From contig CAYHAE010000005.1 in the NCBI GenBank assembly GCA_964354545.1, positions 12,414 to 76,413 on the forward strand: a stretch of 64,000 nt of DNA. The letters are read 5' to 3'. Every line of letters begins with the position of its first letter. Position 1 is the stretch's first letter. Shown in pieces: positions 15,054-35,945 of the stretch. The DNA is from an uncultured Planctomycetia bacterium. GTDB taxonomy: Bacteria > Omnitrophota > Gorgyraeia > 2-01-FULL-45-10 > JAHFGN01. The translations under genes were made by a program, and so were the position numbers. A model generated the notes under the pieces. It did not search any database and had not been told where the DNA came from. It saw only the letters and a program-made list of their open reading frames with translations.

Positions 15054-15060
15054 GCACAAT

Positions 15061-15150
15061 CGCTGTCTATAGGACAGAACAGCGTTTCGATAAAATCAGG
15101 CTCTTTTTCAAAGACGAAAACGAGCAGCTGCTTTTTCAAAGGCGAAAAAG
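15061..15150. promoter_or_regulatory. Intergenic hairpin plus duplicated internally palindromic motif TTTTTCAAAGRCGAAAA
   Basis: A hairpin CGCTGTC-TATAG-GACAG..ACAGCG lies at 15061-15084, right after the neuC stop. Two copies of CTTTTTCAAAG(A/G)CGAAAA lie at 15103-15120 and 15131-15150. This is the 200-bp gap before the amidotransferase gene. Confidence 0.3.
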
Positions 15151-15251
15151 CTGATCAATTCAAGGAAGAAGATCGTTGCCGGCAGCACGCTTCGACAGGA
15201 GAGGAAGATCTCGAATGACACGCAGGTGTACATCAACAAAGGAAGGCTAAG

Positions 15252-16388: not shown

Positions 16389-16479
16389 AAGTTGTGTATC
16401 GCGGCAGTGCGCGGAGCCGCCAGGACCCGAGAACGAGTATGGTTTCGTATGTGTACTTTTCAGTTCCGGGCGACCCTGA

Positions 16480-17550: not shown

Positions 17551-18803
17551 GAGAAAAGCTCTTCATTCATGGCGGGCGGAAGGTCCGGTACGAAAATTTC
17601 GATTACCGTGCTCCGATCGGACAGGCCGAGATAAGTTCGGTTACAAGGCTCCTGAGGAAGAAAACGCTTTCGGGATTTTACAAGGATTTCTTAGGCGGTG
17701 AAAATGTGCAGAAGTTCGAGAGTCTTTTTGCAGAATATATCGGAGTAAAAAACGCGATCGCGGTCAATTCGGGGACCTCGGCGCTTCACGTTGCCCTTGC
17801 CGCGGCAGGAGTGGGCCCGGGCGACGAAGTAATAGTGCCGCCGTTTACATTTACTGCGACGGCGTCAGCTGTCTTGATGAATAACGCGATCCCTATTTTT
17901 GTCGACATCGATCCCGATACGTGGTGTATCGATCCCCGCAAGATTAAGCGTGCGCTCAGTAAGAGGACAAAGGCGATAATCCCCGTGCATATCTACGGGA
18001 AGGTCGCCGGGATCGAGGCGATAAAAAGTATCATTGCGGGGCGAGAGATCTCAGTAATAGAAGATGCATGTCAGGCGCCCGGGTGTACTTACCGCGGAAA
18101 GAAGGTCGGATCCATAGGTGACGTCGGGTGCTTCAGTTTTGTTGAAACAAAGAATATGGTGATCGGTGAAGGCGGAATGATCACCACCGATAATGATGAG
18201 ATCGCCTGCAGGTGCCGGCTGATCAGAAACCACGGCGAGGTTTGGACGAAGGACGCGCCGAGAGAATACCTCGCAAATATCCTGGGGTATAACTTCAGGA
18301 TGACTGAGATCGAGGCCGTGATCGGGATCGCGCAGTTGAAGAAACTCGATCGTTTGAATTCCATACGTAAAAGAAACGCCTCTTACCTCGAGGAGGGATT
18401 GAGCGCGTTCGAGGGGATCAGCGCCATGCATTTCGGGAAGAATGAGATCTGTCACCTGTTCCCGCTTTTGTACGACGAGGGGGCGGTCGGCATTTCGAAA
18501 GAAAGATTCATGGAGGTTATGCGGCTTGAGGGAGTTCCTCTTTCGGCAGGCTATCCGCACCCGCTGTACAAAAATCCGATATTTCAAGAGAAGATCGCAT
18601 ACGGTAAGCAAGGCTGCCCCTATACGTGCCATTTTTATGATACTGCTATTGATTATAAAAGAGTAAGGTGCGATGTCGCTGAGGAGGTGTGCCGAAAGCT
18701 CATATGTATAAGGCAGATCCATTATCCATACAGCGTGAAGGATATGGCCGATATCGTGGCGGGGTTCAAAAAAGTGTTCCATAATAGGGGGATGTTCCAA
18801 TGA
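17547..18803 (+). CDS. DegT/DnrJ/EryC1/StrS-family PLP-dependent sugar aminotransferase (second copy)
   Basis: The family signature NSGTSALHVALAAAGVGPGDEVIVPPFTFTATASAV is present. The lysine region is FSFVETKNMVIGEGG. There is an ATGA overlap with the upstream gene. Confidence 0.85.
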   Translation: MREKLFIHGGRKVRYENFDYRAPIGQAEISSVTRLLRKKTLSGFYKDFLGGENVQKFESLFAEYIGVKNAIAVNSGTSALHVALAAAGVGPGDEVIVPPFTFTATASAVLMNNAIPIFVDIDPDTWCIDPRKIKRALSKRTKAIIPVHIYGKVAGIEAIKSIIAGREISVIEDACQAPGCTYRGKKVGSIGDVGCFSFVETKNMVIGEGGMITTDNDEIACRCRLIRNHGEVWTKDAPREYLANILGYNFRMTEIEAVIGIAQLKKLDRLNSIRKRNASYLEEGLSAFEGISAMHFGKNEICHLFPLLYDEGAVGISKERFMEVMRLEGVPLSAGYPHPLYKNPIFQEKIAYGKQGCPYTCHFYDTAIDYKRVRCDVAEEVCRKLICIRQIHYPYSVKDMADIVAGFKKVFHNRGMFQ

Positions 18804-19567
18804 TCCGTTCATTGAATGTTGTTGCAGTGATCCCGGCACGCGGCGGGTCCAAAGGCCTGCCGGGAAAGAACGTGATCGATCTATGCGGTAAGCCCCTGAT
18901 CGCATATACGATAGAGGCGGCGCTCCAAAGCAAGTACATAGACAGGGTGGTCGTATCCACCGATGCGCCTCACATCGCGAAGATCGCCAGGAGATATGGC
19001 GCTGAGGTCCCGTTCTTGAGACCGCGCTCGCTCGCTCTCGATACCGCACATACGCCGCCTGTGATCATTCACGCGATCCGATTCCTTGAAAAACATTCTT
19101 ACGGCGTAGACATCGTCGTTACCTTACAGCCGACCTCTCCCTTAAGAGAATCGAGACAGATCGATCAGGCGATCGAAAGGTTAGTCACGTCAAGGTGCGG
19201 CTCTGTCGCAAGCGCAAAGCCTGCGGAATATCCTCCGTATTGGCTCGTGAAGATCAGGGGCCATAAGGCGATCCCGTTTGTAAACGACGGGGTTAATTAT
19301 TTCAATAAAGAACGTCAACAGTTGCCCAAGACCTATCAGCTTAATGGCGCAATCTATGTTACAAGAAAGAATCGCCTTCTCGAAAGCGGGAATATTATAA
19401 CCGAGCGTTGCGGGATCGTGCTCATGGATGACATAACATCATCGGATATCGACACCTATAGTGATCTTGAAAAGATAGCGGGTATCGTAAAGAAAAGGAG
19501 AAGCCGATATCGCGGGTGTCTGTCCAGAAGATCGGGAACCGGAGGGAAAAGCGCATGGGGAAAATAA
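18800..19567 (+). CDS. neuA: Acylneuraminate cytidylyltransferase-family CMP-nonulosonic acid synthetase (NeuA/LegF-like)
   Basis: The CTP_transf_3 signature VAVIPARGGSKGLPGKNV is present, along with QPTSPLR and YQLNGAIYV motifs. Confidence 0.8.
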   Translation: MIRSLNVVAVIPARGGSKGLPGKNVIDLCGKPLIAYTIEAALQSKYIDRVVVSTDAPHIAKIARRYGAEVPFLRPRSLALDTAHTPPVIIHAIRFLEKHSYGVDIVVTLQPTSPLRESRQIDQAIERLVTSRCGSVASAKPAEYPPYWLVKIRGHKAIPFVNDGVNYFNKERQQLPKTYQLNGAIYVTRKNRLLESGNIITERCGIVLMDDITSSDIDTYSDLEKIAGIVKKRRSRYRGCLSRRSGTGGKSAWGK

Positions 19568-20130
19568 GGAATCCAGGGTACTGCTATTTTTACACCGGAA
19601 AACGTGTCTGTCTGCGCGGCATTGAAAGAGAGGACTACACCGAACGTATGTACAGATGGGCGAACGATCCCGATTTTAATCGTTATCTGAGCTATGGCTC
19701 AAGGCCCCAGACCGCGAGAACGATGGAAAAGCTTTTTGACGACCTTGTGAACAAAGAAAATACGATCTTCGCGATCGACGATAAAAGAACAAGGAAGACA
19801 ATAGGGTTGGTGGGCCTTCATCAGATCAATTGGCCGGCCCGATCAGCAGAATATACGATCCATCTTGGAGAGAAGAGATTCTGGGGGAAAGGCGCGGCCG
19901 CAGAGGCAACCGACCGCATACTTTACTATGCCTTCCACACGCTTAATCTCCATAAGGTCTGGCTAGGTGTCAATGAGGCAAATCGAAGGGCGGTCGCGTT
20001 CTATAAGAAAAAAGGATTCGTGACCGAAGGAAAACTGCGGGATGAGATCTTTCGGGAAAATAGCTACTTTGACTCCATACGGATGAGCATGCTCAAAAAT
20101 GAATATGAGATGCGATACATGAGAAAGTAA
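19555..20130 (+). CDS. GNAT-family N-acetyltransferase (RimL/PseH-like)
   Basis: The GNAT core is LVGLHQINWPARSAEYTIHLGEKRFWGKGAAAEATDRILYYAFHTLNLHKVWLGVNEANRRAVAFYKKKGF. The start was trimmed to the ATG at 19555, after a GGAGGG RBS. Confidence 0.7.
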   Translation: MGKIRNPGYCYFYTGKRVCLRGIEREDYTERMYRWANDPDFNRYLSYGSRPQTARTMEKLFDDLVNKENTIFAIDDKRTRKTIGLVGLHQINWPARSAEYTIHLGEKRFWGKGAAAEATDRILYYAFHTLNLHKVWLGVNEANRRAVAFYKKKGFVTEGKLRDEIFRENSYFDSIRMSMLKNEYEMRYMRK

Positions 20131-20148
20131 CTGCCGGGGGTTTATCCG

Positions 20149-21252
20149 ATGCAAAAAGAGCTCTTGTCACAGATACAGATCCAGCCTACGTTCTCGATAA
20201 AAGAGGCGTTGAAAAGGATTGACGCAACGGGCTTGCGGATATTATTTGTATGCGATAAGGATGGATGCCTAATCGGTTCTCTGAGCGATGGAGATATACG
20301 CCGACGGGTCTTGAAAAAAGGCAGTATGCGTGAAAAAGTCATAAGCTGTTTCAACAGGGACCCTGTCTGCGTCGCGAAGGGCCCCCAGATCCGCGAGGCC
20401 GCTCGAAAAATAATGCTCGAAAAGACCATCGATGTGATCCCGGTCGTGGATACCGGTAAAAGGATCGCGGATGTCATATTATGGCAAGATGTGTTTCAGG
20501 AAGAATGCCGGCATACGAATGAACTCAATGTGCCCGTGGTCATTATGGCGGGCGGGAAGGGCGAGAGGCTCGATCCGTTCACAAGGATCCTGCCAAAACC
20601 CCTCATCCCGGTAGGCGAAAGGCCTATCATAGAAATAATAATCGATAAATTCAGGCAAAAAGGCGTAAACGTTTTCTATATCACGTTAAATTACAAAGGC
20701 AAGATGGTCAAGACGTATTTCGACAGTATAGGAAAGCCTTATATAGTGCGCTACCTCTGGGAAAAGGAGTTTTTGGGGACTGCGGGAAGCCTGAAGCTAT
20801 TGCCGTCGAGTATCGGAGACCCGTTCATCGTCTCCAACTGTGATATTATCGTGAGCGCGGATTATATGGATCTAGTGCGTTTTCATCAAAAACAGAATAA
20901 TATGCTGACCGTCGTAGGCTCTCTTCAGCACTACAAGATACCTTATGGCCTCGTTTATTTTGAAAGGAATGGAAGAATGAGAAGGATCAGAGAAAAACCG
21001 GAATTTGATTTTACGGTAAATACCGGCATGTACGTGGTTTCCAGCAAGGCCTTAGCGTATATCCCCAAGAACAGAAAGTTCGATATGACGGACTTTATAC
21101 AGGACCTCTTGCGCCATAAGCAGAACGTGGGGGTCTACCCCGTGAGCCAGAAATCGTACATCGATGTCGGGCAGTGGGAAGAGTACAGGAATAATACGGG
21201 AGATTGCTTAAAAAATTCCGGCAATGACAACTTCGTCTACAGAACGGGTTAA
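20149..21252 (+). CDS. CBS-domain pair fused to a sugar-phosphate nucleotidyltransferase (PtmE-like GlcN-1-P guanylyltransferase candidate)
   Basis: The N-terminal CBS pair is LFVCDKDGCLIGSLSDGDIRR...DVIPVVD. The NTP_transferase motif is VVIMAGGKGERLDPFTRILPKPLIPVGERPIIE. This architecture matches PtmE of the legionaminic acid pathway. Confidence 0.75.
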   Translation: MQKELLSQIQIQPTFSIKEALKRIDATGLRILFVCDKDGCLIGSLSDGDIRRRVLKKGSMREKVISCFNRDPVCVAKGPQIREAARKIMLEKTIDVIPVVDTGKRIADVILWQDVFQEECRHTNELNVPVVIMAGGKGERLDPFTRILPKPLIPVGERPIIEIIIDKFRQKGVNVFYITLNYKGKMVKTYFDSIGKPYIVRYLWEKEFLGTAGSLKLLPSSIGDPFIVSNCDIIVSADYMDLVRFHQKQNNMLTVVGSLQHYKIPYGLVYFERNGRMRRIREKPEFDFTVNTGMYVVSSKALAYIPKNRKFDMTDFIQDLLRHKQNVGVYPVSQKSYIDVGQWEEYRNNTGDCLKNSGNDNFVYRTG

Positions 21253-21262
21253 AGGGGAGGAT

Positions 21263-22219: not shown

Positions 22220-22239
22220 CAAAAGAAAGTCGAAAAAAG

Positions 22240-23859: not shown

Positions 23860-25716
23860 ATGCTCAGTTTCGATCTGTCGGAAATGAGGCGAGCGGACGG
23901 CTCGGTCTTGTATTGGGAAGCCGAGGCCGAAGCATCCCGGCACGCCCTGAAGGTGGCGGATCGGGTTGCCGTGACGGCGCCGTTCAGGGAGCTGTTGAGG
24001 AGGCTCCCGAGCAAGCGCCTGCTCCTCTATTGTCAGTATGCGGTCAAAGAGGAGATCTACCCATTCGTGCGCCAGGCATGCGTCATCCGCTGGTACCGCG
24101 ATAACGGCAGGGCGATCCCTTCAGGCGATGATGTGGTCCCTGTCCCGCGAAAGGGCTTGTGCGCCGCTCTTGAGGACTGCTGGGAGTTCGATGGCATCCC
24201 GCTCAGGAAGATGAGCCCCTTCGAGTTCGTCTTTAGGCGGGAGGCGCGTTCGCCCGGGCAGGCGATACGTCAGGCCTTGAAACCTCCCGTCAAGGCGTTC
24301 CTGCGGTTTATCCAAGAACTGCGCAGAGACCAGGTTCCGGGGGAGGCGCAGGGGCACAGCGGAACGATCGCATGTCATTACGTCGAAGGTGTCGACCCCT
24401 CCCGTCGGAACGATCTCAGTTGGTTTGCGGGTAGCGGTCTCGAGCCCGAGCAGGTTCTCATCTATTTCGACAGCCGTGACAACAAGACCGGCCGCCCCAT
24501 ACCACGAAAAATCATTCGTGATATAGAGGAACGCGGGTTTCGCTGGGTCGCGCTGCTTCCAGGGGTTGTCGAGGAGCAAGGCATGCGATATTGGAACGCT
24601 CCCCGGGTGCCCGCACACGAGTTCCTCTCGAAACGACTCGCCGGGAGCGATGTGGAGCGGTGGGCCGTTGAGATGGGAAACCATGCGATCGAACAGGTAT
24701 TCTATTGGCGATCATTCCACAGGGCGTTTGGCGTGAAGGTGCACTATATCCCCGAAGAAGGGTTTGCGAAGAACATTGCCCAGGCCATCGCGTTCGATGC
24801 GGAGGGCACCCGCGCGGGGGTCCTTGTCGGAAGACAGAGGTCGGAGATCTCGGCTCCTCTTGGATGCTGCATCGGCTTCCAACCGAAGCATGTCTACTTC
24901 GTCTGGAGCAGGAGGTATGATCTCAAACTCCTACACGACGACCACGACCGGATCGAGGCGCTCGTCGTCTCAGGGTATCCGTATTGCACCTCGCTTTCAT
25001 ACGAGGACAGGGTCGGCGCATTGCGTCGCAAAGGGGTTACATTTGTGGTCGCGCTCTTCGATGAGGGGCATGGTCCGCACACCTTTTCATCCTCGAAGAA
25101 TATCGAGCGGCTCTACCGGGCGTTCCTTCAGTGGGTCGTTGATGATCCGGAGGTCGGGCTCATTATCAAATCTAAGAAACCTTCGGTGATCAAGGGGCTA
25201 CCCGCGCTACATCCGCTTCTCGATCGCGCGGTCGCGACCGGCCGCTGCGTGAGGCCTGCCAGAGAATGGGGGATGTTTCCCGCCGAGGCATCGAAAGGTG
25301 CCGACATGGCGGTCGGCGTCGATATTGCGACCGCAGTGGTAGAAGCGGTCCTCAATGGCTGCCGGGGGGTCTGCTTCGATGCGGCAGCCGCGCCCGATCA
25401 TCAGTTTTATCAGTGGGGCCGGGTCATATATGCCTCGCTTGAGGAGATGGTCGCGGCGATGAAACGTTTCAAGGCGGACACCTCGAGCGAGCCCTCGCTC
25501 GGTGATTGGTCGGCGCATCTCAATGAGCTCGACCCGTTCCGCGATGGACAGGGAGGGGCGCGGATGGGAAGCTACATGCGATGGCTGCTCGAGTCGTTCA
25601 ATGACGGGAAATCACGCGAAGAAGCTATCCGTTTCGCGAACGGATCGTACGCCGCGCAGTGGGGCGCGGATAAGGTGATCATGATGGATGATGAATGCGT
25701 GCGCAATGCGCTTTAG
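23860..25716 (+). CDS. Large hypothetical protein (618 aa), no confident family assignment
   Basis: The long ORF was trimmed from 23698 to the ATG at 23860, which is preceded by AGGAGG and separated from the upstream stop by 14 bp. There are no motifs I can assign. It may be distantly related to the other two large unknowns (35946, 46166). Confidence 0.5.
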   Translation: MLSFDLSEMRRADGSVLYWEAEAEASRHALKVADRVAVTAPFRELLRRLPSKRLLLYCQYAVKEEIYPFVRQACVIRWYRDNGRAIPSGDDVVPVPRKGLCAALEDCWEFDGIPLRKMSPFEFVFRREARSPGQAIRQALKPPVKAFLRFIQELRRDQVPGEAQGHSGTIACHYVEGVDPSRRNDLSWFAGSGLEPEQVLIYFDSRDNKTGRPIPRKIIRDIEERGFRWVALLPGVVEEQGMRYWNAPRVPAHEFLSKRLAGSDVERWAVEMGNHAIEQVFYWRSFHRAFGVKVHYIPEEGFAKNIAQAIAFDAEGTRAGVLVGRQRSEISAPLGCCIGFQPKHVYFVWSRRYDLKLLHDDHDRIEALVVSGYPYCTSLSYEDRVGALRRKGVTFVVALFDEGHGPHTFSSSKNIERLYRAFLQWVVDDPEVGLIIKSKKPSVIKGLPALHPLLDRAVATGRCVRPAREWGMFPAEASKGADMAVGVDIATAVVEAVLNGCRGVCFDAAAAPDHQFYQWGRVIYASLEEMVAAMKRFKADTSSEPSLGDWSAHLNELDPFRDGQGGARMGSYMRWLLESFNDGKSREEAIRFANGSYAAQWGADKVIMMDDECVRNAL

Positions 25717-25795
25717 AAGCGCACTTGTGCAGTGAGCATAGCGTTTAGGGGATGCCAGGCACCGGCGGACCCCGCGATATGAGGGATAGGACGAA

Positions 25796-27220
25796 ATGAA
25801 ACAGTATGACAGCAAGAAGTTTACGGTCTTTTGTCTGATGATATTCGGCCGGTCAGGCTCGAAGTTCTTTCAGGGGATCCTGGATTGGCATCCTCAGATA
25901 ATATCGTTTCCCAGGAACCTCCACTTCAATAGTTTCTGGCAGAAGGTGGAGAGGCGCAAAGACGATGTCGCCTACGTGGTCGACACCTTTATCGAAGATC
26001 ATCCGCGCGCATTTTCAGGCGCGCTCTGGTATCTCTTCAATAAATATGACAGGGCAGATGAGCTTGGCACCAAGAGAGACGAGACCTTTTCGGTCGACAT
26101 GAACGCGTTCCGGCGGAATGCGCTCGAACTCCTGCAGGGTAAAGAGATGAACAGGAGAGAGGCGTTCGTCGGGCTTCACCTTGCGTACCATGCGGCGAGC
26201 GGAAGGGAACTCGCCGATAACTCGATCATCTTCTGCCACATCCACGCGATCCGGCATATAGACGAATTGAGAGCGGTCGCAGAGGATTTTCCCGACACGA
26301 GGGTCTTGATACGGACGCGGCATCCGATCGAACGCCTAAAATCCTGCGCGGCGTGGATGAAGATGCAGAACGTCTATTCCTGCGGCCAGCCGTACGAAGA
26401 GGAGATCGAAGACCTCGAGGGGACCGAGCCGATCAGGGTCCTCTTTCCCGCGCTTGATATGCGCGTCCTCACCTTTGAGCAGCTCCACTGGCATCATCGG
26501 GAGGCGATGGAGGCGTTCGTGCGCTGGGTGGGTATAGAGTGGAACGAGAGCTTGATGGTGAGCACGATCCACGGAAAGCTCTGGTGGGGGGATAGCAAAG
26601 TGTTGCGCCACGGGTCCAATCCAAAGTGGAGGCTCTATAAGCCGAAAGGATTTCTGGAGAAGAAGGATTGGCGCGTCCTCCTTGCCCTTAACGGCGAGCG
26701 GCTGAAGCAGTATGGTTATGCGAGCGCGGAAGAGGTGCGCATGGCGAGGCTGGGGCGGCTCACGCTCCTCGGGGCCCTGCTTCTTCCCACGAAATATGAA
26801 TGGACGACGCTGAAGACGATGTTCAGTCTGAGCCATTGGTGGACGGCAGTCCGCACCATCATCGACGATACCACCTCCGAGAGGAGAAGAGGTTTTGACT
26901 TTTATACCAAGAAACGGGTGAAACATCGCGATGAGGTGCTTTTGGGTATACCGGTATCGGGGATCGCGGCCGGCTATCGCGTAGCGCGGCAATTAGTGCG
27001 GCACATCTGGCTGCTCAATCCTCTCAAATGGGTCTGGTTCTGTATGAAGCGCGTCGTCATGTATTGGCAGTACGCCGAAGGGCATAGGAAGAGAAGAGAG
27101 ATCTTGCTGCCTCTGCTTCTGGAGAAGACCGCTCCTCCGGCGGCGGGCAGCGCTCCCTGCGAGAACCGGACGGGAGATCTCACAAGAGATGTTCAGCGTC
27201 TCTTAAGCGGTCGAACGTGA
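25796..27220 (+). CDS. Candidate PAPS-dependent sulfotransferase (Sulfotransfer_3-like N-domain) with C-terminal extension
   Basis: A 5'-PSB-like P-loop (FTVFCLMIFGRSGSKFFQGILDWHPQIISFP) is present. A 3'-PB-like R-x(n)-S motif (LIRTRHPIERLKS) is present. The gene sits about 16 kb downstream of cysC-sat-cysQ in the same cluster. Confidence 0.6.
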   Translation: MKQYDSKKFTVFCLMIFGRSGSKFFQGILDWHPQIISFPRNLHFNSFWQKVERRKDDVAYVVDTFIEDHPRAFSGALWYLFNKYDRADELGTKRDETFSVDMNAFRRNALELLQGKEMNRREAFVGLHLAYHAASGRELADNSIIFCHIHAIRHIDELRAVAEDFPDTRVLIRTRHPIERLKSCAAWMKMQNVYSCGQPYEEEIEDLEGTEPIRVLFPALDMRVLTFEQLHWHHREAMEAFVRWVGIEWNESLMVSTIHGKLWWGDSKVLRHGSNPKWRLYKPKGFLEKKDWRVLLALNGERLKQYGYASAEEVRMARLGRLTLLGALLLPTKYEWTTLKTMFSLSHWWTAVRTIIDDTTSERRRGFDFYTKKRVKHRDEVLLGIPVSGIAAGYRVARQLVRHIWLLNPLKWVWFCMKRVVMYWQYAEGHRKRREILLPLLLEKTAPPAAGSAPCENRTGDLTRDVQRLLSGRT

Positions 27221-27257
27221 TACGTAAAATCAAGAAGGATATCGCCGGCCACGAGCT

Positions 27258-27346: not shown

Positions 27347-27524
27347 CCTTAATGAAAAGCTCGCATGCTGATGGGGATATTTCCCCAAAGAAAAAAGGTG
27401 CCCCGGCCTTTAGGCCGGGGGGCTCCACAGATAGTGATTATTATTCAAATGCTCCTTTTCTATCGGTATTCGAGTGAGGAGCATCGCGGGGTTAAGACCG
27501 TACGGTTATGAACGAGGTATACCA

Positions 27525-28739
27525 ATGGCACACAGGACCACACGACGTCGGAAGCAGGCGCCCTTAAACATCCTCGTCATCGGCATGGGGATGTACGTAT
27601 GCGGCAGAGGAACGGAAACCCATGGAACGATCATGCCGGCCATTTACGAGTGGAGGAAGAAGAATGAGTTGGGAGAAGTATATGTTGCCGGGACGGGCCC
27701 TGAGGGAATAAGTATTGCGAAAGCAAAAATAGACGAGATTGAGCGCAATACGGGAGTTCATGTTCCGCTCACGTTTTATCCCGAAGGGGAGCTCTACGAT
27801 CTTCAGTGTTATAGAAGGGCTATCCGCACGATACCGAAACCGGCGTGCGCGATCGTCGTGGTGCCCGATAATTACCACAGAGAGGTAGCAGGTGAAGCGA
27901 TTGAGGGCGGGCTCCACACGCTTGTGGTGAAGCCTCTTGCGCCGACCCTCAAAGAGGTGTACGAATTGATCGAGTTGCAGCGAAAGAAGCGCGTATACTG
28001 CGCGGTTGAATTTCACAAACGTTTCGACCACGCGAATCTGAAGCTCAAGGATTCTCTGCGTGAGGGGGTTATCGGAGATCCCCTCTACTTTCTCGTGGAG
28101 TTCAGTCAGCGGAAGAGTGTCCCCGCTGAACGTTTCAGAAAATGGGTCGAGGCAACAAATATCTTTCAGTATCTCGGAATTCACTATGTCGATATTATCT
28201 ATTTTGCAACAGGTGCGAGGCCGGTCCGCGCAATGGCATTGGGGCAACGGGGGTGGCTCTATTCAAGGGGCATCGATACCTATGATTCGATAGAGGCCAT
28301 CATTGAATGGGAGATGCCCGGCGGTCAAAGATTCACTTCTTCGATCCTTACTAACTGGATCGATCCGGAGTCAACTTCTGCGATGTCCGATCAGAAGATA
28401 AAGGTAATAGGGACGAAAGGGAGGTTTGAGTCCGACCAGAAGCGGCGCGGGGTCATGATCGTGAGCGACGAGAGGGGGATAAAAGAGCCAAATCCGTATT
28501 TTTCGGCTTCATACGGCACTCCCCCTATGGTTTCATATCATGGGTATGGGATCGAAAGCATACACCAGTTCCTGAAAGACGTTATCGATATCGAGTCGGG
28601 GATTGTGACGATAGATGCGCTCGAAGATAAAAGGCCTACGTTTGCGCAGTCGATCGTGCCCACCGCAGTTATCGAGAGCGTCAATAAGAGTCTCAAGGAC
28701 GGAGGGCAATGGATAGCCATTCAAGAAGTGGAAAAGTGA
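27525..28739 (+). CDS. Gfo/Idh/MocA-like oxidoreductase (predicted dehydrogenase)
   Basis: The N-terminal dinucleotide-binding-like segment is NILVIGMGMYVCGRG. The family motif EGGLHTLVVKPLAPTLKEVYELIELQRKKRVYCAVEFHKRFD is present. The start was trimmed to the ATG at 27525, after a GAGG RBS. Confidence 0.55.
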   Translation: MAHRTTRRRKQAPLNILVIGMGMYVCGRGTETHGTIMPAIYEWRKKNELGEVYVAGTGPEGISIAKAKIDEIERNTGVHVPLTFYPEGELYDLQCYRRAIRTIPKPACAIVVVPDNYHREVAGEAIEGGLHTLVVKPLAPTLKEVYELIELQRKKRVYCAVEFHKRFDHANLKLKDSLREGVIGDPLYFLVEFSQRKSVPAERFRKWVEATNIFQYLGIHYVDIIYFATGARPVRAMALGQRGWLYSRGIDTYDSIEAIIEWEMPGGQRFTSSILTNWIDPESTSAMSDQKIKVIGTKGRFESDQKRRGVMIVSDERGIKEPNPYFSASYGTPPMVSYHGYGIESIHQFLKDVIDIESGIVTIDALEDKRPTFAQSIVPTAVIESVNKSLKDGGQWIAIQEVEK

Positions 28740-29935
28740 CGGCGAAGGAGCTTCGCGTAGAGGCCGGGGTCCTCGAGCGCTTCATAACGCGCGTGCTGCG
28801 AAAAGAGGGCGTTCGTGCTGACGTCGCGAGATATGTCGAAGAAGGGCTCGTGCAGACTTCGTTGAGAGGCGTCGATTCGCACGGCGTGCGTCTTTTTCCC
28901 CATTATATTGCCGAACTCAAGGGCGGACGGGTCAACCCTGATCCGGAATATAGGTTCCGTAAAACATCATATTCAACCGGAATACTTGATGCTGATCATA
29001 CCTTTGGGCATGCGGCAGGCATGGAGGCCGCGAAGCGCGCGATCGGCCTCGCACGTAAGGCAGGGACAGGTCACGTTGCGGTATGCAACTCAAATCACTT
29101 TGGCGCAGCTGCCTGCTATGCGCTGGAGATCGCGCGGCATGACATGATCGGCATGAGTTTCACGAACACCGATGCCCTGGTAAAGACCTACGCGGGGAAA
29201 AGGCCGTTTATGGGGAATAACCCGATATGTTTCGCCGCACCCTGCAAAGGCGAGGAACCTTTTTGTCTCGATATGGCAACGAGCGTCACCACCTTCAACA
29301 GGATCAGGCAGCTGAGGGATGAGAGACGGCCTGCGCCGGAAGGGGTCGGGGCAAATCGGGAAGGCATTGAAACAACCAACCCGGATGATATCACCATGCT
29401 TTTGCCGATCGGAGGCTATAAGGGGTACGGCCTCAGCATGGCCGTTGAGGTCCTGTGCAGTCTTCTCACCGGGATGCCCTATGGACCGCATATCCCCAAG
29501 ATGTTCGAGGCGCCCATGAGCGCACATAGATTTCTCGGGCATTTCGTCATTGCGATGAGGATCGACCGGTTCCACGATAAAGAGGCGTTCAAGGAGCGGC
29601 TTTCGCAGATGGTGCATGAATTGAGGAGTGAGCCGCGCCTGGATAAGAGGACACCCGTACAGGTAGCGGGTGATCCTGAAAAGAGGAGCGCTGTCGAGAG
29701 GAAGAAAAAAGGGATCCCTTTTACCCTGCGGGAGTTCAAGGCATTCAAGGAGTTGAGCCGTGAATACGGAGTCGGATTTGACCTGCGCCCCGGACCCGCG
29801 TTGCGTTCCGCTTCACGGGATGGCGTGGGTTCCCTGCCTGGACGCCGGGGGAGGCGCTCTATGGAGCCCGAAGAGGGAAATCGCGGCCGTAAGATCACGG
29901 AGCTTCATCTTATGCGCGCGAGAGGTAATCGATGA
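28709..29935 (+). CDS. Ldh_2-family (malate/L-lactate/sulfolactate dehydrogenase family 2) NAD(P)H-dependent oxidoreductase
   Basis: The Ldh_2 signature is RGVDSHGVRLFPHYIAELKGGRVNP...HFGAAACYA. A GGAGGG RBS precedes the ATG at 28709; an alternative GTG is at 28736. The C-terminal 50 aa are an Arg/Gly-rich low-complexity tail. Confidence 0.65.
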   Translation: MDSHSRSGKVTAKELRVEAGVLERFITRVLRKEGVRADVARYVEEGLVQTSLRGVDSHGVRLFPHYIAELKGGRVNPDPEYRFRKTSYSTGILDADHTFGHAAGMEAAKRAIGLARKAGTGHVAVCNSNHFGAAACYALEIARHDMIGMSFTNTDALVKTYAGKRPFMGNNPICFAAPCKGEEPFCLDMATSVTTFNRIRQLRDERRPAPEGVGANREGIETTNPDDITMLLPIGGYKGYGLSMAVEVLCSLLTGMPYGPHIPKMFEAPMSAHRFLGHFVIAMRIDRFHDKEAFKERLSQMVHELRSEPRLDKRTPVQVAGDPEKRSAVERKKKGIPFTLREFKAFKELSREYGVGFDLRPGPALRSASRDGVGSLPGRRGRRSMEPEEGNRGRKITELHLMRARGNR

Positions 29936-31635
29936 AGGATGATGGGCGCACCGACATACTGATAATCATTCCGCCGGCAGGGACGACAAATACCGTCTTT
30001 CCTCCCTATGGCGCGATGTATGTAGCGAGCGCCCTGCGGGAAAAGGGTTATTGCCCGAAAATATTGAATGTCGATACCGGGCGGATCGCTGATCACGAGG
30101 TGATCGAGCGGATCAGGAGGGAAAATCCCCGCTACATCGGTTTCAGCGGTATAGTCGCCCCCTCCTATAGGTACATCAAAGAGCTGAGCCTGGAGCTGAA
30201 GGATGCCTTTCCCGATCGGATCCAGATCCTTGGCGGCGGTCTCTCAAGTGCTGCGGAAACGGTGCTTGCGAATACGGCTGTCGATATTGTCGTATACGGC
30301 GAAGGCGACCTGACCGCCGGAGAGCTCATGGATTGCCTGGAACGCAAGGGGGACTTGAGCAGCGTCCCCGGAATATATTACAGGTCCGGCACCGATATCT
30401 GTTACACCGGCGAGAGGGAATTAGTGCGGGACCTCGATGCCCTGCCGTATCCGGCGTTCGACCTTGTCGATATGGACCGGTATCTCCCCAACGGCGTGGA
30501 GTTGATCCACCGCCACACCAGGAACGTCAACGACAGGCGGATATACGATAGAAGACGGAAGCGAAAGATGATGACGCTCCTCGCGGGCAGGGGGTGTTTC
30601 GGAAGATGCAGTTTTTGCTTCAGGGCATATCCCGGGATACGCTTTCACTCGATGCGGTATGTCTTCGACCTCATCGAATACTGCGCGGATAGATTCGACG
30701 CCGGATTCTTCTCGTTCGGAGATGAGTGTTTCACGGCGAATAAGGCGCGCCATTGGGAGTTCATCAATGAGTACAGGCGCCGGAAGATGGACTTTGTCTT
30801 TCGGATCCAGGGCGCACGGGTCGACACGTTCGACAGGGATATTCTGCGCGCGTACAAGGAGATCGGGTGCTGGATGATAGAGTACGGGTTCGAATCGGGA
30901 AGCCAAAAGATGCTTAACATCATTGATAAGCGCGTTACGGTCGAACAAAATCGGCGCGTTGCCCTCTGGACACGCGAGGCGGGCATTCATACGTCGCCGA
31001 CGCTGGTGCTCGCGATGCCCGGCGAGGACGATAAGACGATACAGGAGTCGATAGAGTTCCTGAAGTCCCTCGATTTCTGTTTCAAGCAGTACCAGTGGAC
31101 GTTTGCGCTCCCCATAGCAGGATCGCCGCTCTACGAATACGCGCGCCTGGTCGGGGCGATCATCGATGAGGATGAATACCTTTCGTCGATCGCGGGCGAG
31201 GTCGGTGCCGCCGGCGTATTTCACGTGAACCTGACCTCGTGCTCGGATGAGGCGGTGGTTTCGTGGCCCGAGAGGATAACGCGCGAAGTCGACGCGCATT
31301 ATTTTCGCACACACTATCGTCACGCGTGGCATGCGCGATGCGCGAAGATCGCAGCGCTTATCGACATTCATATAAAGCGACGGGATCTCCTCACGGTCCT
31401 CGCGAAGAAGGCGGGTTCGCTCCTCGCTCGCGCAGGCGCATCGTCTCCAAAGACGCGTGTCGTCCGGTATAGGGCGCGGGACGAATATAGGACCGGGGAA
31501 CTCTTCAAGCCTCACTGCTCGGCATCGGTTGACCCTGCGGGGGCGCTTGCCCTCGTCAATAAGCGCCTCCGGGAAGGATCGCTCGTTCGCGTTTCCGGTC
31601 ATCCGTACGGCGGGCCCGCCGGAAAGGATATATGA
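29932..31635 (+). CDS. Cobalamin (B12)-binding radical SAM enzyme
   Basis: The B12-binding N-domain is ILIIIPPAGTTNTVFPPYGAMYVASALREKGY. The radical SAM motif is LLAGRGCFGRCSFCFR. There is an ATGA overlap with the upstream gene. Confidence 0.85.
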   Translation: MKDDGRTDILIIIPPAGTTNTVFPPYGAMYVASALREKGYCPKILNVDTGRIADHEVIERIRRENPRYIGFSGIVAPSYRYIKELSLELKDAFPDRIQILGGGLSSAAETVLANTAVDIVVYGEGDLTAGELMDCLERKGDLSSVPGIYYRSGTDICYTGERELVRDLDALPYPAFDLVDMDRYLPNGVELIHRHTRNVNDRRIYDRRRKRKMMTLLAGRGCFGRCSFCFRAYPGIRFHSMRYVFDLIEYCADRFDAGFFSFGDECFTANKARHWEFINEYRRRKMDFVFRIQGARVDTFDRDILRAYKEIGCWMIEYGFESGSQKMLNIIDKRVTVEQNRRVALWTREAGIHTSPTLVLAMPGEDDKTIQESIEFLKSLDFCFKQYQWTFALPIAGSPLYEYARLVGAIIDEDEYLSSIAGEVGAAGVFHVNLTSCSDEAVVSWPERITREVDAHYFRTHYRHAWHARCAKIAALIDIHIKRRDLLTVLAKKAGSLLARAGASSPKTRVVRYRARDEYRTGELFKPHCSASVDPAGALALVNKRLREGSLVRVSGHPYGGPAGKDI

Positions 31636-32771
31636 TAGCATGGATCGTGCTCATACTCATCGTGCTCTGCGCGGTCATTGAATCGCTCTCATATGCGATC
31701 TACCGTACGAACAGGAATGTGCGGGAGATCGCGAGGGATATGCTTGGCAAAAAGAGGCCCCCCAGCAGCGACATCGAGACCTTCATGCTCAGATACGCGG
31801 AACATCCTTTTCTCGGCTATGCGCTTAACCCCGAATTCAGGAATTCGTTCGGAGAGGCGATCCACAACACATGCGGGTTCCGGTTCGAAGGGGATCTCTA
31901 CAACCTTGACGGAACGGTGGTCTATTGCGCCGGAGACAGTTCGACCTATTGCAACGGGATCGAGAGAAATAAGGATACGTGGCCGGCACTTCTCCAGAAC
32001 GCCCTGCGTACCCACCCTTCTTACAAAGAAGCGGTGGTGGTAAACGGCGGATGCGGGGCATGGACGAGTTTTCAGAGCCTCATTCGTTTCTTGACATGGG
32101 TCGATGTCATCAGGCCCCAGCTCGTCATCGTGTATCATGGAAAGACCGATTTCATACCATTCATGGCGGGCGATGCATCTGTCCGGAAGATATTCCCCGA
32201 CTACAGCAATATCATGTGTTCGCTGAGGATGGGTGCCCTCGCGCGCGCGTGGGGGGCGCTGGCGAGGTTCTCATATGCCGGGAAGATCGCCTACGGTGCC
32301 TACGTGAACACTGCGTACGAGAACATCCATTGGAAAGTGCTTCGGCAGAAGAAGGCAAAGCTTCCCAATGAGATCCGCAAGGGGTTGCGGCGCGTGACGC
32401 CGGAAGCGTTTGATTTTATCTTCTCGAGGTACCGTTCGTTCGTGGATGCATGCGTTGCGCGGAAGATACCCATCCTGCTGGTCACTCAAAGAGTGGCGAG
32501 CGTCCTCTATCGGCCCTATATGAGCGAGCTCAATGACCGGATCAGGTCGCTTGCCTGTGCACCGGAAGGGGTCTACGTGTACGATTTCGACCGCGAGGCC
32601 TCGGGCGCAGATAGGTTCCTTTTCGACAGTGTCCACTTCACGCACGAAGGTGTGCGTTTCTTCAGCGAACGGCTGAGGGATTTCATATGTTCTCAGATCA
32701 TCCCTCCCTTACGCGGAAAGGCGCGAGAGACATCCGAGGTGCTCGCGCAGGGGAGAGGAGGGACGGTGTGA
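31632..32771 (+). CDS. Membrane-anchored SGNH/GDSL-family hydrolase (candidate glycan O-acyl esterase/transferase)
   Basis: An N-terminal transmembrane helix (MIAWIVLILIVLCAVIESL) is present. SGNH block I is VVYCAGDSSTY. Block V is the DxxH in FDSVHFTHEG. Confidence 0.5.
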   Translation: MIAWIVLILIVLCAVIESLSYAIYRTNRNVREIARDMLGKKRPPSSDIETFMLRYAEHPFLGYALNPEFRNSFGEAIHNTCGFRFEGDLYNLDGTVVYCAGDSSTYCNGIERNKDTWPALLQNALRTHPSYKEAVVVNGGCGAWTSFQSLIRFLTWVDVIRPQLVIVYHGKTDFIPFMAGDASVRKIFPDYSNIMCSLRMGALARAWGALARFSYAGKIAYGAYVNTAYENIHWKVLRQKKAKLPNEIRKGLRRVTPEAFDFIFSRYRSFVDACVARKIPILLVTQRVASVLYRPYMSELNDRIRSLACAPEGVYVYDFDREASGADRFLFDSVHFTHEGVRFFSERLRDFICSQIIPPLRGKARETSEVLAQGRGGTV

Positions 32772-33577
32772 TGAGCAGGCTGCGGCGCGCATGGCGCATG
32801 ATCGCAATGGTACCCGCGCGTATGGGGTCGACAAGGCTTACGATAAAGAACCTCGCCCTCCTCAACGGGAAGCCGCTCATCTATTACGCGATAAAGGCAT
32901 CGAAGGATTCGGGCGTATTCGAACGCATCGTGATCAATTCGGAGCATCCGCTCTTCGCAAAGATCGCGAGGCGTTACGGGGTCGAGTTCTACAGGAGGCC
33001 GGACGAGTGGGCGACGTCGGACGCGAAGTCGGATTCCGTCGTATACGATTTTCTCACGAAGAACCCTTGCGATATCGTCGCGTGGGTGAACCCGACCTCG
33101 CCCCTCCAGACAGGCGAAGAGGTGAGGCGCGTCGTGGAGTACTTCCGGGAGGAAAAACTCGATTCTCTCATCACGGTGAAGGACGAACAGGTCCACTGCA
33201 TGTATAGGGGGAGGCCCGTGAACTTCCGCATGGATGAGGAGTTCGCGAAGACCCAGGACCTGAGCCCCGTCCACCCGTTCGTCTACTCGGTGATGATGTG
33301 GCGGTCCCGGCCCTTCATGCGGGAATTCGAGAAGAAGGGCCGCGCGCTCTTCTGCGGGAAGTTCGGCGTATACTCTGTGAGCAGGCTCACGGGCATCATC
33401 ATCAAGCGCGAAGAGGACCTTATGCTGGCGGATTATATCATGCGGGCCGCGGCGCGGGGAAAGAGATATAAGGTGCGCTATGACAGGCTCGTGAAAGACT
33501 ATAGACCACAGACTATAGACCATAGACCGAAGACCATAGACCAGAGACAAACGGCTGGCGCGAAGGGACAGCGATGA
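32771..33577 (+). CDS. Acylneuraminate cytidylyltransferase-family protein (second CMP-sugar synthetase-like gene)
   Basis: The CTP_transf_3 signature MIAMVPARMGSTRLTIKNLALLNGKPLIYYAI is present. The ATG at 32771 overlaps the upstream TGA, after a GGAGG RBS. The C-terminus is encoded by a short tandem DNA repeat. Confidence 0.7.
   Translation: MSRLRRAWRMIAMVPARMGSTRLTIKNLALLNGKPLIYYAIKASKDSGVFERIVINSEHPLFAKIARRYGVEFYRRPDEWATSDAKSDSVVYDFLTKNPCDIVAWVNPTSPLQTGEEVRRVVEYFREEKLDSLITVKDEQVHCMYRGRPVNFRMDEEFAKTQDLSPVHPFVYSVMMWRSRPFMREFEKKGRALFCGKFGVYSVSRLTGIIIKREEDLMLADYIMRAAARGKRYKVRYDRLVKDYRPQTIDHRPKTIDQRQTAGAKGQR
33495..33550. repeat. Short tandem repeat (ATAGACC[A] x4-5) inside the 3' end of a CDS and upstream of the next start
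   Basis: The sequence GACTATAGACCACAGACTATAGACCATAGACCGAAGACCATAGACCAGAGAC encodes a DYRPQTIDHRPKTIDQRQT tail. It lies 25-80 bp upstream of the ATG at 33574. Confidence 0.5.
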
Positions 33578-34941
33578 AAGATCTTGTATCGATTATCATC
33601 CGCACCAAGAACGAAGAGCGATGGATCGCCCAGTGCCTCCAGAGCGTCCTCGGCCAGGAGTATAAGAAGTTCGAGGTGATCATCGTCGATAATCAATCGA
33701 CGGACAAGACCGTTGAGAAGGCGAAGACGTTCCCTATCTCGAAGGTCGTGACGTGCGGCGAGTACTTGCCCGGGAAGGCGCTCAATATGGGGATAAGGGA
33801 GTCGAGAGGGGACTACATCGCGATACTCTCGGGCCACTGTATCCCTGTCAATAAGCTGTGGCTCACCAATCTGCTCAGGAACTTCAATGGGGGCAGCGTT
33901 GCAGGGGTCTATGGCCGACAGGAGCCGATGGAATTCACCTCAGACGCAGACAAGCGGGACCTCGCGCTCGTCTTCAGCCTTGACAGGAAGGTCCAGCTGA
34001 AGGACAGTTTTTTTCACAATGCCAACAGCATGATCCGCAGGGACATTTGGCAGGAGACACCGTTCAATGAGACTGTCACGAACATCGAGGACAGGGTGTG
34101 GGCCAAAGAGGTGCTCGAGAAAGGGGCCCAGATCGTCTATGAACCCGAGGCGAGCGTTTACCACTACCACGGCATACACCAGAACGGCGATGAGGAGAGG
34201 TGCAGGAACGTGGTGAGGATCCTCGAGAGCCTCCACGCCGACTATCAATATAAGACCATCGACGCCGAAAAATTGAATACGGTCGCCTTCATTCCTGTAA
34301 AGGGGCCTATCAGGTACCTGAACGAGAAGCCGCTCGTCGCGTACACGATCGAGACCGCCCGCGAGTCGAAGTACATCAAGAAGATAATCGTCTCGACCGA
34401 CAACGCGGAACTCGCCGCGCTCGCGAGAGAGCTCGGGGCAGAGGCCCCGTTCATCCGGGAGCCCGCTCTTTCCAGTGAGAAGGTAAATCTCGCTCAGGTG
34501 CTCCAGTACTCGCTTCATAGGATCGAGGAGCTCAAGGTGTTCCCGGACCTCGTCGTATCGCTTGAGGTCACGTTCCCGTTCAGGCCGAAGGGGCTTTTGG
34601 ACAGGATGATCGCGCACCTCGCGGAAGGAGGCTTCGACAGCGTCGTCGCGGCGCGGTTGGAGAACAGGGCCATATGGAAAGAGAGGGAAGGGGCTATCGT
34701 CCAGATCGACGAAGGCCTCACGCCTCGCCAGTTCAAAGAGCCGACCTACATCGAGCTGAAAGGGGTCGGTTGCGTGACACATCCCGAATTCCTCCGGCAG
34801 GGGACGCTCCTCGGGGAGAAGATAGGGCTCTACGAGGTGGACGATCCCTATTCGCACCTCGAGGTGAGGAGCAAAGAGGATTTTTCGATGGCGTCGTTTT
34901 TGATGAAGGAGTGGGCACAAGAGCGATGGATGTCTTTATAG
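33574..34941 (+). CDS. Bifunctional fusion: GT2 glycosyltransferase N-domain plus acylneuraminate cytidylyltransferase-like C-domain
   Basis: The N-terminal GT2 signature is VSIIIRTKNEERWIAQCLQSVLGQEYKKFEVIIVDNQSTDKT. A DxD-like region is present. The C-terminal CTP_transf_3 region is VAFIPVKGPIRYLNEKPLVAYTIETARESKYIKKIIVSTDNAE. Confidence 0.7.
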   Translation: MKDLVSIIIRTKNEERWIAQCLQSVLGQEYKKFEVIIVDNQSTDKTVEKAKTFPISKVVTCGEYLPGKALNMGIRESRGDYIAILSGHCIPVNKLWLTNLLRNFNGGSVAGVYGRQEPMEFTSDADKRDLALVFSLDRKVQLKDSFFHNANSMIRRDIWQETPFNETVTNIEDRVWAKEVLEKGAQIVYEPEASVYHYHGIHQNGDEERCRNVVRILESLHADYQYKTIDAEKLNTVAFIPVKGPIRYLNEKPLVAYTIETARESKYIKKIIVSTDNAELAALARELGAEAPFIREPALSSEKVNLAQVLQYSLHRIEELKVFPDLVVSLEVTFPFRPKGLLDRMIAHLAEGGFDSVVAARLENRAIWKEREGAIVQIDEGLTPRQFKEPTYIELKGVGCVTHPEFLRQGTLLGEKIGLYEVDDPYSHLEVRSKEDFSMASFLMKEWAQERWMSL

Positions 34942-35927
34942 GCCGAGAGTTTTCACGCTATTACGAGAAAGCGCCTCTTACGCTCGTCGACATAGGGGCG
35001 CGAGGCGGCATAGAGAAGAATTGGAGGAGGGCGCGGCAGAACCTCTGCGTGATAGGTTTTGAGCCCGACACGCAGGAGTGTGAGAAGCTTGCTCTCGCAG
35101 CCGGCAGAGGCGCGAGGCGCTATCTGAACTCAGCGCTCTATAAAAGTAAGGGGACCGTCGAATTTCACCATACGAGAGCCGGCGGCGCCTCATCGATATT
35201 CAGGCCGAACAGGGATTTTGTCGATCGATTTCCCGAGTCGAGCCGCCTCGATATTGTCGGGACGGTCGCCGTCGAGGCCGATACGTTGGACAACCAGCTT
35301 CGCTCTCACGGCATCAGGGACGTCGATTTCGTCAAAGTAGATACCCAGGGCAGCGAGCTGTACGTACTGCAGGGCGGGCGCGATATCATATGCGGCTCCG
35401 TATTCGGAATGGAGATCGAGGTCGAATTTGCCCCTGTCTACGAAGGGCAGCCTTTATTCTCTGACGTCGATGCCCTCGTGAGGGGGTGCGGGTTTTCGCT
35501 CTTTGACCTCAAACCATATTATTGGAAGAGAGGCGCGGGGCAGTCGTACGGCAGGCCTAAAGGGCAGATCATCTTCGCGGACGCCCTCTATCTGAGGGAT
35601 ACGGACAGCCTGCACCGCATGCTCGGCCCTCTCCAGGGAGACAGTTCGAAAAAAGCGAAGATCGCAAGGGCGATCTCGATATGCGCTATCTATGGGTATC
35701 TGGATTATGCGCTCGAGATCTTTACGTCGGAGAAAGACCTTTTTACCCGCGAAGAGCAGAGTTCGTTCATGAAGGCGCTCGAGAAGGACGTTTCGCTCTC
35801 GCGGAAGATCCCGGATTTTCGCGGAAGAGGGCATATCGCGAACTGCATCCATTCATTGTACAGGCTCATACATCCCTCCGGGAGGAGCTGGCATTCGAGC
35901 GGAAGGGCTCTCGGTAATGTGGAATAG
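34926..35927 (+). CDS. FkbM-family SAM-dependent methyltransferase
   Basis: The FkbM motif LVDIGARGGIEKNW is present. The ORF-track start at 34674, in a frame overlapping the upstream gene, was trimmed to the ATG at 34926. Confidence 0.7.
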   Translation: MDVFIGREFSRYYEKAPLTLVDIGARGGIEKNWRRARQNLCVIGFEPDTQECEKLALAAGRGARRYLNSALYKSKGTVEFHHTRAGGASSIFRPNRDFVDRFPESSRLDIVGTVAVEADTLDNQLRSHGIRDVDFVKVDTQGSELYVLQGGRDIICGSVFGMEIEVEFAPVYEGQPLFSDVDALVRGCGFSLFDLKPYYWKRGAGQSYGRPKGQIIFADALYLRDTDSLHRMLGPLQGDSSKKAKIARAISICAIYGYLDYALEIFTSEKDLFTREEQSSFMKALEKDVSLSRKIPDFRGRGHIANCIHSLYRLIHPSGRSWHSSGRALGNVE

Positions 35928-35945
35928 GGCCCAAGGGATACCGGT

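Follow-up and report, generated by a model that had tools for sequence, protein, structure and literature searches.

In a 64-kb stretch of contig CAYHAE010000005.1 from an uncultured bacterium (the window, analysed over its whole length), the gene at 25796..27220 on the + strand encodes a 474-aa protein of the Sulfotransfer_3 superfamily, which belongs to an uncharacterised subfamily. We assign a probability of about 0.72 to the reading that this protein is a soluble, cytoplasmic O-sulfotransferase dependent on 3'-phosphoadenosine 5'-phosphosulfate (PAPS), that its acceptor is a sugar, or a group linked to one, produced by the enzymes of the gene cluster around it, and that its C-terminus forms a helical cap and not a membrane anchor. 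Judged from the sequence, the gene very probably codes for a genuine enzyme that transfers sulfate to a sugar of the bacterial surface. A preliminary description of the window had already called the product a candidate sulfotransferase. This call is borne out by a PF13469 match above the cutoff, by a P-loop-type fold, and by genes for PAPS synthesis and for recycling of 3'-phosphoadenosine 5'-phosphate (PAP) in the same cluster.

The open reading frame (ORF) starts with ATG, and a Shine-Dalgarno-like GAGGGA lies 8 nt 5' of it. All motifs quoted in the preliminary description were present exactly as described, namely MIFGRSGSKFF at residues 15-25, RTRHPIERLKS (R-x3-P-x2-R-x2-S) at residues 173-183 and, in the C-terminal region, WTTLKTMFSLSHWWTAV at residues 336-352 and WLLNPLKWVWFCMKRVVMYWQY at residues 405-426. 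In the HMM search that had been proposed as a check, PF13469 (Sulfotransfer_3) matched with 33.7 bits (E=5.9e-8; gathering cutoff 27), spanning residues 18-251 and HMM positions 8-216 of 216. Most homologues also have a precomputed PF13469 match. No NCBIfam model matched the protein at E<=1, and a single-sequence phmmer search against the PDB returned noise only. The protein represents an uncharacterised branch of the sulfotransferase superfamily, and a family profile was needed to see its relationship to entries in the PDB. For this profile, 65 sequences were aligned and searched against all PDB sequences. The significant matches were sulfotransferases only: TPST1 (1.2e-14), the sulfotransferase (ST) domain of CurM (1.5e-12), TPST2, and the cytosolic SULTs.

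In this profile comparison, the R-x-GS loop of the family was aligned with the 5'-phosphosulfate loop of TPST1 ('PRSGTT'), and the R-x-P-x5-S segment with the 3'-phosphate motif of TPST1 ('RDGRASVHS'). Both segments had been proposed as PAPS-binding elements on inspection of the sequence, and the assignments hold. In the 5'-phosphosulfate-binding loop (residues 15-25; 25838..25870, +), the superfamily pattern [K/R]-x-G-[S/T]-[S/T] after a strand is represented by R19-S20-G21-S22-K23 after strand 10-16, with R19 conserved in 63, G21 in all 65 and S22 in 60 of the 65 family members. The 3'-phosphate-binding motif (residues 173-183; 26312..26344, +) follows strand 169-174; R175 is found in 60 members and replaced by K in the other five, P177 in 62 and S183 in 56. 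Between these two elements, the segment H148-I149-H150 (26237..26245, +) ends strand 144-151, and H150 is conserved in 64 of 65 members. Past the Pfam match, a GKLWWG loop (G260-K-L-W-W-G265; 26573..26590, +) is marked by G260 (60/65), W263 (61/65) and W264 (58/65), and may contribute to nucleotide binding. As the key residues of both PAPS-binding elements are conserved in 56-65 of 65 members and align with the loops of TPST1, these motifs are not chance resemblances. The protein shows all testable defining features of the PAPS-dependent sulfotransferase superfamily.

An AlphaFold2 (AF2) model built on the family alignment reached a mean pLDDT of 93.1 and a pTM of 0.91. It recovered the P-loop-type alpha/beta fold that had been expected of a sulfotransferase, with a central parallel sheet as in the solved enzymes. 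The model contains four parallel strands, each followed by a motif: strand 10-16 leads to R19-SGSK, strand 144-151 ends in H148-I-H150, strand 169-174 leads to R175-H-P177 with S183 in the next helix, and strand 221-226 leads to E228. When this model was compared with the PDB by Foldseek, the top 38 matches all had the PAPS/PAP-binding sulfotransferase fold (TPST1/2, CurM ST, OLS ST, Stf9, Stf1, NST, SULTs). The TM-scores of these matches were modest (0.37-0.57, target-normalised), and the fold is therefore the same but divergent. By analogy to the canonical topology, H150 is probably the base that activates the acceptor hydroxyl, because it is located at the end of strand 144-151 and 25 residues before R175. 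His108 and Arg130 of SULT1E1 have the same strand-helix-strand spacing. An alternative candidate for the catalytic base is E335, which is invariant in the family.

All long ORFs of the window are on the + strand and make up one very large glycan-biosynthesis cluster. This cluster includes an ATP sulfurylase (Sat; 8145..9317, +; PUA_2 and ATP-sulfurylase domains, NF003166 523.7 vs. 387), which makes adenosine 5'-phosphosulfate (APS), an APS kinase (CysC; 7534..8148, +; PF01583 235 bits, NF003013 300.9 vs. 163, TIGR00455 268.7 vs. 138.7), which makes PAPS, and the 3'(2'),5'-bisphosphate nucleotidase CysQ (9281..10156, +; TIGR01331 288.3 vs. 228.8), which removes PAP. No second sulfotransferase domain was detected with Pfam among the long ORFs of the window, so the protein studied here is the obvious consumer of PAPS. 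The same coupling was observed around its homologues. An APS kinase, an ATP sulfurylase or a pyruvate kinase (PK)-like domain is encoded within the sequenced flank in 10 of 21 distinct homologue contexts (15 of the 21 are further metagenome loci), and seven of the other 11 contexts are on contigs of about 5 kb or shorter. Genes with roughly one copy in each genome would not come together this often by chance; the enrichment exceeds such an expectation by far. In the loci L001 and L006/L007, a PK + APS-kinase fusion that passes the apsK domain cutoff is encoded directly 5' of the sulfotransferase homologue. In locus L002 (Omnitrophota-type, like L005), genes for an APS kinase, a PK-ATP-sulfurylase fusion and a Sulfotransfer_1 protein are found close by, and in L008, a Margulisbacteria metagenome-assembled genome (MAG), the order is homologue, APS kinase, ATP sulfurylase and PK.

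The PK-like domain in these loci is a truncated pyruvate-kinase barrel, which occurs either as a fusion partner or as a neighbour of APS kinase or ATP sulfurylase (L001 8488-9999, L006 8485-9996, L007 2524-4035, L002 14192-16372, L008 4169-5131, and also L010, L012, L021 and L022). Two types of fusion were seen, PK + APS kinase with 503 aa and PK + PUA_2 + ATP-sulfurylase with 726 aa; CysC and Sat of the window are plain enzymes without a PK domain. The truncated domain may serve as a dedicated, phosphoenolpyruvate-driven ATP regeneration system for PAPS synthesis. We found no description of PK-APS-kinase fusions in the literature. Directly upstream of cysC-sat-cysQ, an ABC importer of the SsuA family (aliphatic sulfonate/taurine-type) is encoded at 4697-7267 (+). 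A sulfonate-type binding protein beside a sulfate-activation operon is unexpected, as a sulfate-binding protein would be expected there.

The preliminary description regarded the protein as about 150 aa longer than typical sulfotransferases and ascribed this to an unusual C-terminal extension. Measured against solved sulfotransferase domains (about 250-300 aa) the protein is indeed long, but most members of its own family have 360-450 aa. An exhaustive search with the family profile yielded 2422 representatives at E<=1e-3. The whole 430-position profile is covered by about 20 of them; the majority of the remainder have 360-410 aa and align to positions 4-335. Since most representatives are also long, the length beyond the solved domains is a family trait. 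Close homologues number 10-11, at 33-49% identity. The larger part of the supposed extension, about 130 aa (residues 311-443; 26726..27124, +), is a confidently predicted helical subdomain common to the family. The AF2 model places seven helices within residues 285-430, for the most part at pLDDT >90, including 311-316, 321-329, 333-342, 345-360, 388-406 and 409-430. Weak confidence in the C-terminal region is limited to residues 361-387 and 446-474, and, as the pTM is high, the helices are confidently placed relative to the core. The subdomain carries an LLP-x3-E motif, in which P331 is found in 60 and E335 in all 65 family members, and K418-R419, in which R419 is found in 60; E335 and G21 are the only two invariant positions. 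Residues 311-443 had no Pfam match, and the C-terminal 169 aa alone matched no PDB sequence. A subfamily signature defined in the present analysis (R-x-GSK ... YHIH ... RHP-x5-S ... GKLWWG ... LLP-x3-E ... KR) is matched by the window protein over its full length.

What remains unusual is the very end of the chain. No sequence in the alignment is longer than the window protein, which has 140 residues past E335 compared to a family median of 61. One source of this extra length is a variable insert at about 361-400, for which at most about a quarter of the 65 aligned sequences have residues. A tail of 31 residues (444-474; 27125..27220 including the stop codon, +) beyond the usual LPxLL C-terminus of the family adds the rest; it is non-conserved and unique to the window protein, with an alignment occupancy of <=0.24 and a pLDDT of 53-61. 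The C-terminus had also been described as Trp-rich. This is correct in that residues 311-474 contain 7 W (4.3%), but Trp is enriched over the whole chain (18 W, 3.8%; 11 W or 3.5% in residues 1-310) and therefore does not single out the tail. On the basis of the model, we favour reading the 'membrane-associated extension' as a conserved soluble helical subdomain followed by a short disordered tail. Because of its conserved polar residues and compact fold, the subdomain probably packs on the catalytic core and forms an acceptor-binding cap with E335 and R419, and in this way it may shape acceptor specificity.

The neighbourhood of the gene provides information on the acceptor. Directly upstream, a 618-aa protein (23860..25716, +) is encoded, which is a conserved neighbour and which we refer to as PFTS-like. 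An identical 618-aa database entry starts at 23860, so the ORF start at 23698 is over-extended. The PFTS-like protein of the window itself had no match in our local copy of Pfam-A, whereas PF27878 (PFTS_polysacc) was matched by the orthologue in L006. The 44 homologues, from MAGs of Brocadiaceae, Planctomycetes, Omnitrophota and Dehalococcoidales, are all labelled hypothetical, and we found no paper on the 'PFTS motif' family in the literature. The AF2 model of the PFTS-like protein (pLDDT 87.9) has a GT-B glycosyltransferase (GT)-like fold with an N-terminal helical domain, and the best Foldseek matches were SPY/OGT, UDP-GlcNAc 2-epimerases, a polysialyltransferase and MurG. The block from 23860 to 37850 is syntenic with L001, with identities, in order, of 28% (PFTS-like), 49% (sulfotransferase), 70% (GFO/IDH/MocA oxidoreductase), 73% (Ldh_2 dehydrogenase), 59% (B12-binding radical S-adenosylmethionine (SAM) enzyme), 67% (CTP_transf_3), 70% (GT2-CTP_transf_3 fusion) and 46% (an unknown protein of about 640 aa). 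The oxidoreductase, the dehydrogenase and the radical SAM enzyme are the downstream partners of the sulfotransferase (27474..31635, +; Pfam), in the same order as in L001. CTP_transf_3, the GT2-CTP_transf_3 fusion, an FkbM methyltransferase and the unknown protein (634 aa in the window) form the rest of the module (32687..37850, +). The module recurs in L007 and L010 and in part in L011 and L022.

Further upstream, at 10062..21252 (+), Pfam and curated family cutoffs identified a legionaminic-acid-type nonulosonic acid pathway. It comprises LegB (494.8 vs. 475), a LegC-like aminotransferase, a PglD-like acetyltransferase, NeuB (487.5 vs. 399.65), NeuC (451.6 vs. 235.9), a WbuX amidotransferase, GFO, DegT, a CMP-synthetase, a GNAT protein and a CBS-NTP transferase. 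The counterpart in L006 is a pseudaminic-type set with PseG-, PseH- and PseI-like genes. Distant sulfotransferase homologues are flanked by NeuB, FkbM/SAM methyltransferases, B12-radical SAM and radical SAM-SPASM (rSAM-SPASM) enzymes and sugar epimerases, and in the broader family the sulfotransferase domain is fused to GT2, GT4, TPR or HAD domains. Because of these glycan-cluster contexts, the GT-B-like neighbour, the nonulosonic acid pathways and the fusions to GT2 and GT4 domains, the acceptor is almost certainly a sugar or sugar-linked group, as far as gene content can tell. A nonulosonic-acid-containing product is the leading candidate.

According to the proposed mechanism, Sat and CysC, encoded at the head of the cluster, would make PAPS. 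The sulfotransferase would bind it via the R19-S-G-S-K loop (5'-phosphosulfate) and R175/S183 (3'-phosphate), and His150 would act as the base on the acceptor hydroxyl. Sulfate would then be moved to a sugar or sugar-linked group from the legionaminic-acid-type cluster, the likeliest target being the product of the module of PFTS GT-B-like protein, GFO, Ldh_2, B12-radical SAM enzyme and cytidylyltransferases, and CysQ would clear the PAP. The analysis shows that the protein belongs to the superfamily, has its fold and motifs, and is coupled to PAPS supply in the genome; from these we infer the catalytic residues, the acceptor class and the role of the C-terminus. A more specific version, which we consider possible although less likely than not, is that the family O-sulfates legionaminic (Leg)- or pseudaminic (Pse)-type nonulosonic sugars or a group attached to them, either as the CMP-sugar or after transfer by the PFTS-like protein, in an acceptor pocket formed by the hitherto undescribed C-terminal subdomain with its invariant Glu and conserved Arg.

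Sulfated, nonulosonic-acid-rich extracellular polymers occur in environmental biofilms and granular sludges and were reported from anaerobic sludge, where the sulfotransferases were not identified with known reference sequences (PMC10483923). Apart from this survey of extracellular polymers, we found no literature linking bacterial Pse/Leg to a sulfotransferase, and no report of sulfated bacterial sialic-acid-like glycans. If the more specific version is true, such glycans would exist, and the genes described here would be candidates for the anaerobic-sludge polymers (PMC10483923). The gene is a concrete candidate for an enzyme that sulfates sialic-acid-like glycans in bacteria; should the acceptor prove to be an ordinary sugar, it would be one more glycan-decorating sulfotransferase. 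Bacterial carbohydrate sulfotransferases are poorly catalogued. The tight subfamily comprises about 20 representatives within an uncharacterised family of about 2,400 (50% identity), which is repeatedly tied to its own PAPS supply and to Leg/Pse-type pathways in uncultured lineages, e.g. Omnitrophota and Margulisbacteria. What is new is limited to the family-specific helical subdomain with its invariant Glu and to the steady embedding in Leg/Pse-type clusters with their own PAPS supply.

Among enzymes of known function, TPST1 and TPST2 (PDB 5wrj, 3ap1-3) were the best matches by both profile and Foldseek. The two families can be aligned at P-R-S-G-T-T/G-R-S-G-S-K, LD-x-HP, the R...S of the 3'-phosphate-binding motif and a Y/L-E-x-L strand. 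Identity is, however, only 13-15%, and the TPST segment CGEETR falls into a gap of the window family. TPSTs are Golgi type II membrane proteins that act on peptides, whereas the window protein is predicted to be cytoplasmic and is encoded in a glycan cluster; its 130-aa helical C-terminal subdomain has no sequence match in the PDB. When TM-scores were normalised to the target, the CurM and olefin-synthase ST domains (PDB 4gbm, 4gox) ranked highest, at 0.57 and 0.51; their E-values in the profile search were 1.5e-12 and 7.8e-11. They are bacterial and PAPS-dependent, like the proposed enzyme, but they are part of polyketide synthase (PKS) modules, where sulfation of a beta-hydroxyl activates it for decarboxylative elimination. 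The window offers no PKS context, and these domains do not have the C-terminal subdomain. Stf9 (2z6v), Stf1 (2zq5), NST (1nst) and 3-OST (3uan) have the fold in common with the window protein, but the matches are weak (target-normalised TM-scores 0.30-0.57, E 3e-3 to 0.24) and there is no common C-terminal motif. The Stf enzymes are bacterial, Sulfotransfer_3-type proteins of 365-414 aa that act on glycolipids or sugars, so that the length of the window protein alone is not exceptional. If the acceptor is nonulosonic, the vertebrate sialate O-sulfotransferases Wscd1 and Wscd2 (PMC9304399) would be functional analogues, as both would transfer sulfate from PAPS to a hydroxyl of a nine-carbon ulosonic acid. 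The Wscd enzymes reside in the Golgi of eukaryotes, and the likeness would be one of function, with no homology claimed.

The preliminary description had suggested that the C-terminal region is membrane-associated, which would suit a lipid-linked acceptor. A transmembrane anchor was rejected on hydropathy, both in the window protein and across the family. We detected neither a signal peptide nor a transmembrane helix in the window protein; the maximal 19-residue Kyte-Doolittle (KD) value is 1.14 and falls on the P-loop strand, while values in the C-terminal region reach no more than 1.0. In the family, the hydrophobic stretch before P-x3-E usually has 8-12 residues and a median KD of 0.53 over 19 residues. 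The suggestion is thus unsupported. In a version without a transmembrane helix, the amphipathic helices 388-406 and 409-430 would tether the enzyme to the inner membrane face, where it would sulfate a lipid-linked oligosaccharide or nascent polymer. Peripheral contact of this kind is conceivable, since helices 388-406 (hydrophobic moment 0.64) and 405-430 are amphipathic, aromatic and basic, residues 405-426 being rich in W/F/Y and K/R. A segment with KD >=1.6 is found beside LLP-x3-E in 20 of the 65 aligned relatives, or in 10 of 95 relatives when measured strictly at the motif, and proteins that work with lipid-linked substrates are encoded in the cluster, namely GT2 enzymes, an ArnT-like PMT_2 protein and an ABC exporter. 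Nevertheless, we consider it unlikely that the helices act as a membrane tether. The C-terminal region is part of one compact and confident fold, the invariant E335 and near-invariant R419 are polar and fit a functional pocket better than an anchor, and the Trp enrichment is not specific to the C-terminus.

With the soluble sugar sulfotransferase as the preferred reading, the rank of TPST1 and TPST2 as the best PDB matches raises the question of whether the substrate could instead be a tyrosine. A TPST/RaxST-like enzyme would act on a protein or peptide, e.g. flagellin or a ribosomally synthesised and post-translationally modified peptide processed by the adjacent rSAM-SPASM enzymes. Two rSAM-SPASM genes are indeed located upstream, and 'LD-x-HP' after the P-loop is common to TPST and the family. 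Identity to the TPSTs is only 13-15%, however, and CurM ST, Stf9 and carbohydrate sulfotransferases score similarly. The CGEETR stretch of TPST, which holds the catalytic Glu, has no counterpart in the family profile, so the window enzyme is not TPST-like in chemistry. Neither a catalytic Glu segment after the P-loop nor a peptide context, the marks of TPST/RaxST enzymes, was found for the window protein. No precursor peptide was seen, every context is a sugar-nucleotide/glycan cluster (NeuB, cytidylyltransferases, GTs, epimerases), and family members are fused to GT2 and GT4 domains; tyrosine sulfation is therefore improbable. The unusual PK-APS-kinase fusion next to several relatives could point to a donor other than PAPS. 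In the O-methyl phosphoramidate (MeOPN) pathway of Campylobacter, which is on record in the literature, a CysC-like kinase makes 3'-phospho-CDP-amidate, and by analogy the fold could transfer a non-sulfate group from a PAPS-like 3'-phospho-nucleotide. But real ATP sulfurylases are encoded in the window, L002, L008, L021 and L022, CysQ is additionally present in the window, and the fusion kinases score above the apsK equivalog-domain cutoff. As, moreover, no glutamine-kinase/amidohydrolase set was seen next to the gene, such a donor is very improbable. That the gene is a degenerate or non-functional relic, as one could suspect from the 31-aa tail past the family C-terminus and from a hairpin-rich gap of 250-300 bp after the gene compared to 12-36 bp in relatives, is hardly credible: none of the residues that are invariant in the family has been lost, the uninterrupted full-length frame yields a confident model, and the PAPS genes are kept in cis.

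The gap downstream of the gene (27221-27525) contains three hairpins. Hairpin 1 is located at 27280-27293, hairpin 2 is a perfect 22-nt palindrome, GGATTCCGTTATAACGGAATCC, at 27300-27321, and hairpin 3 has a GC-rich stem at 27401-27420, followed by a T-run on the minus strand only. The palindrome has no repeat copies in the window, and no Rfam family was found in 25000-28000.

Several other features of the cluster should be mentioned. Besides the legionaminic-acid-type pathway, there is a second ulosonic-acid-like module at 39806-46176 (+), with genes for an HpcH/HpaI aldolase, a KdsB-like cytidylyltransferase, a hexapeptide acyltransferase, a GFO oxidoreductase, an SIS isomerase, a methyltransferase, a D-2-hydroxyacid dehydrogenase and a phosphatase of the inositol-monophosphatase family that is below the CysQ cutoff. 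Two large proteins have no Pfam domain, namely the 634-aa protein of the conserved module (35946-37850, +; 46% identity in L001) and a 665-aa protein (46166-48163, +) with a weak match to TIGR04326 'surface carbohydrate biosynthesis protein'. Both are probably further uncharacterised transferases. The window encodes five B12-binding radical SAM enzymes (262-1761, 2393-3940, 29932-31635, 48018-49706 and 54593-56011), and the two rSAM-SPASM enzymes upstream of the sulfotransferase are at 21224-23298. This radical SAM load is unusually heavy and presumably serves C-methylations and other modifications of glycan building blocks. Finally, a GT2 enzyme and a 640-aa PMT_2 (ArnT-like) membrane glycosyltransferase are encoded at 53514-57938 (+), and an ABC exporter at 37870-39687. 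Their presence suggests that a polyprenyl-phosphate carrier is used for the assembly or transfer of part of the glycan, and that this takes place outside the cytoplasm.

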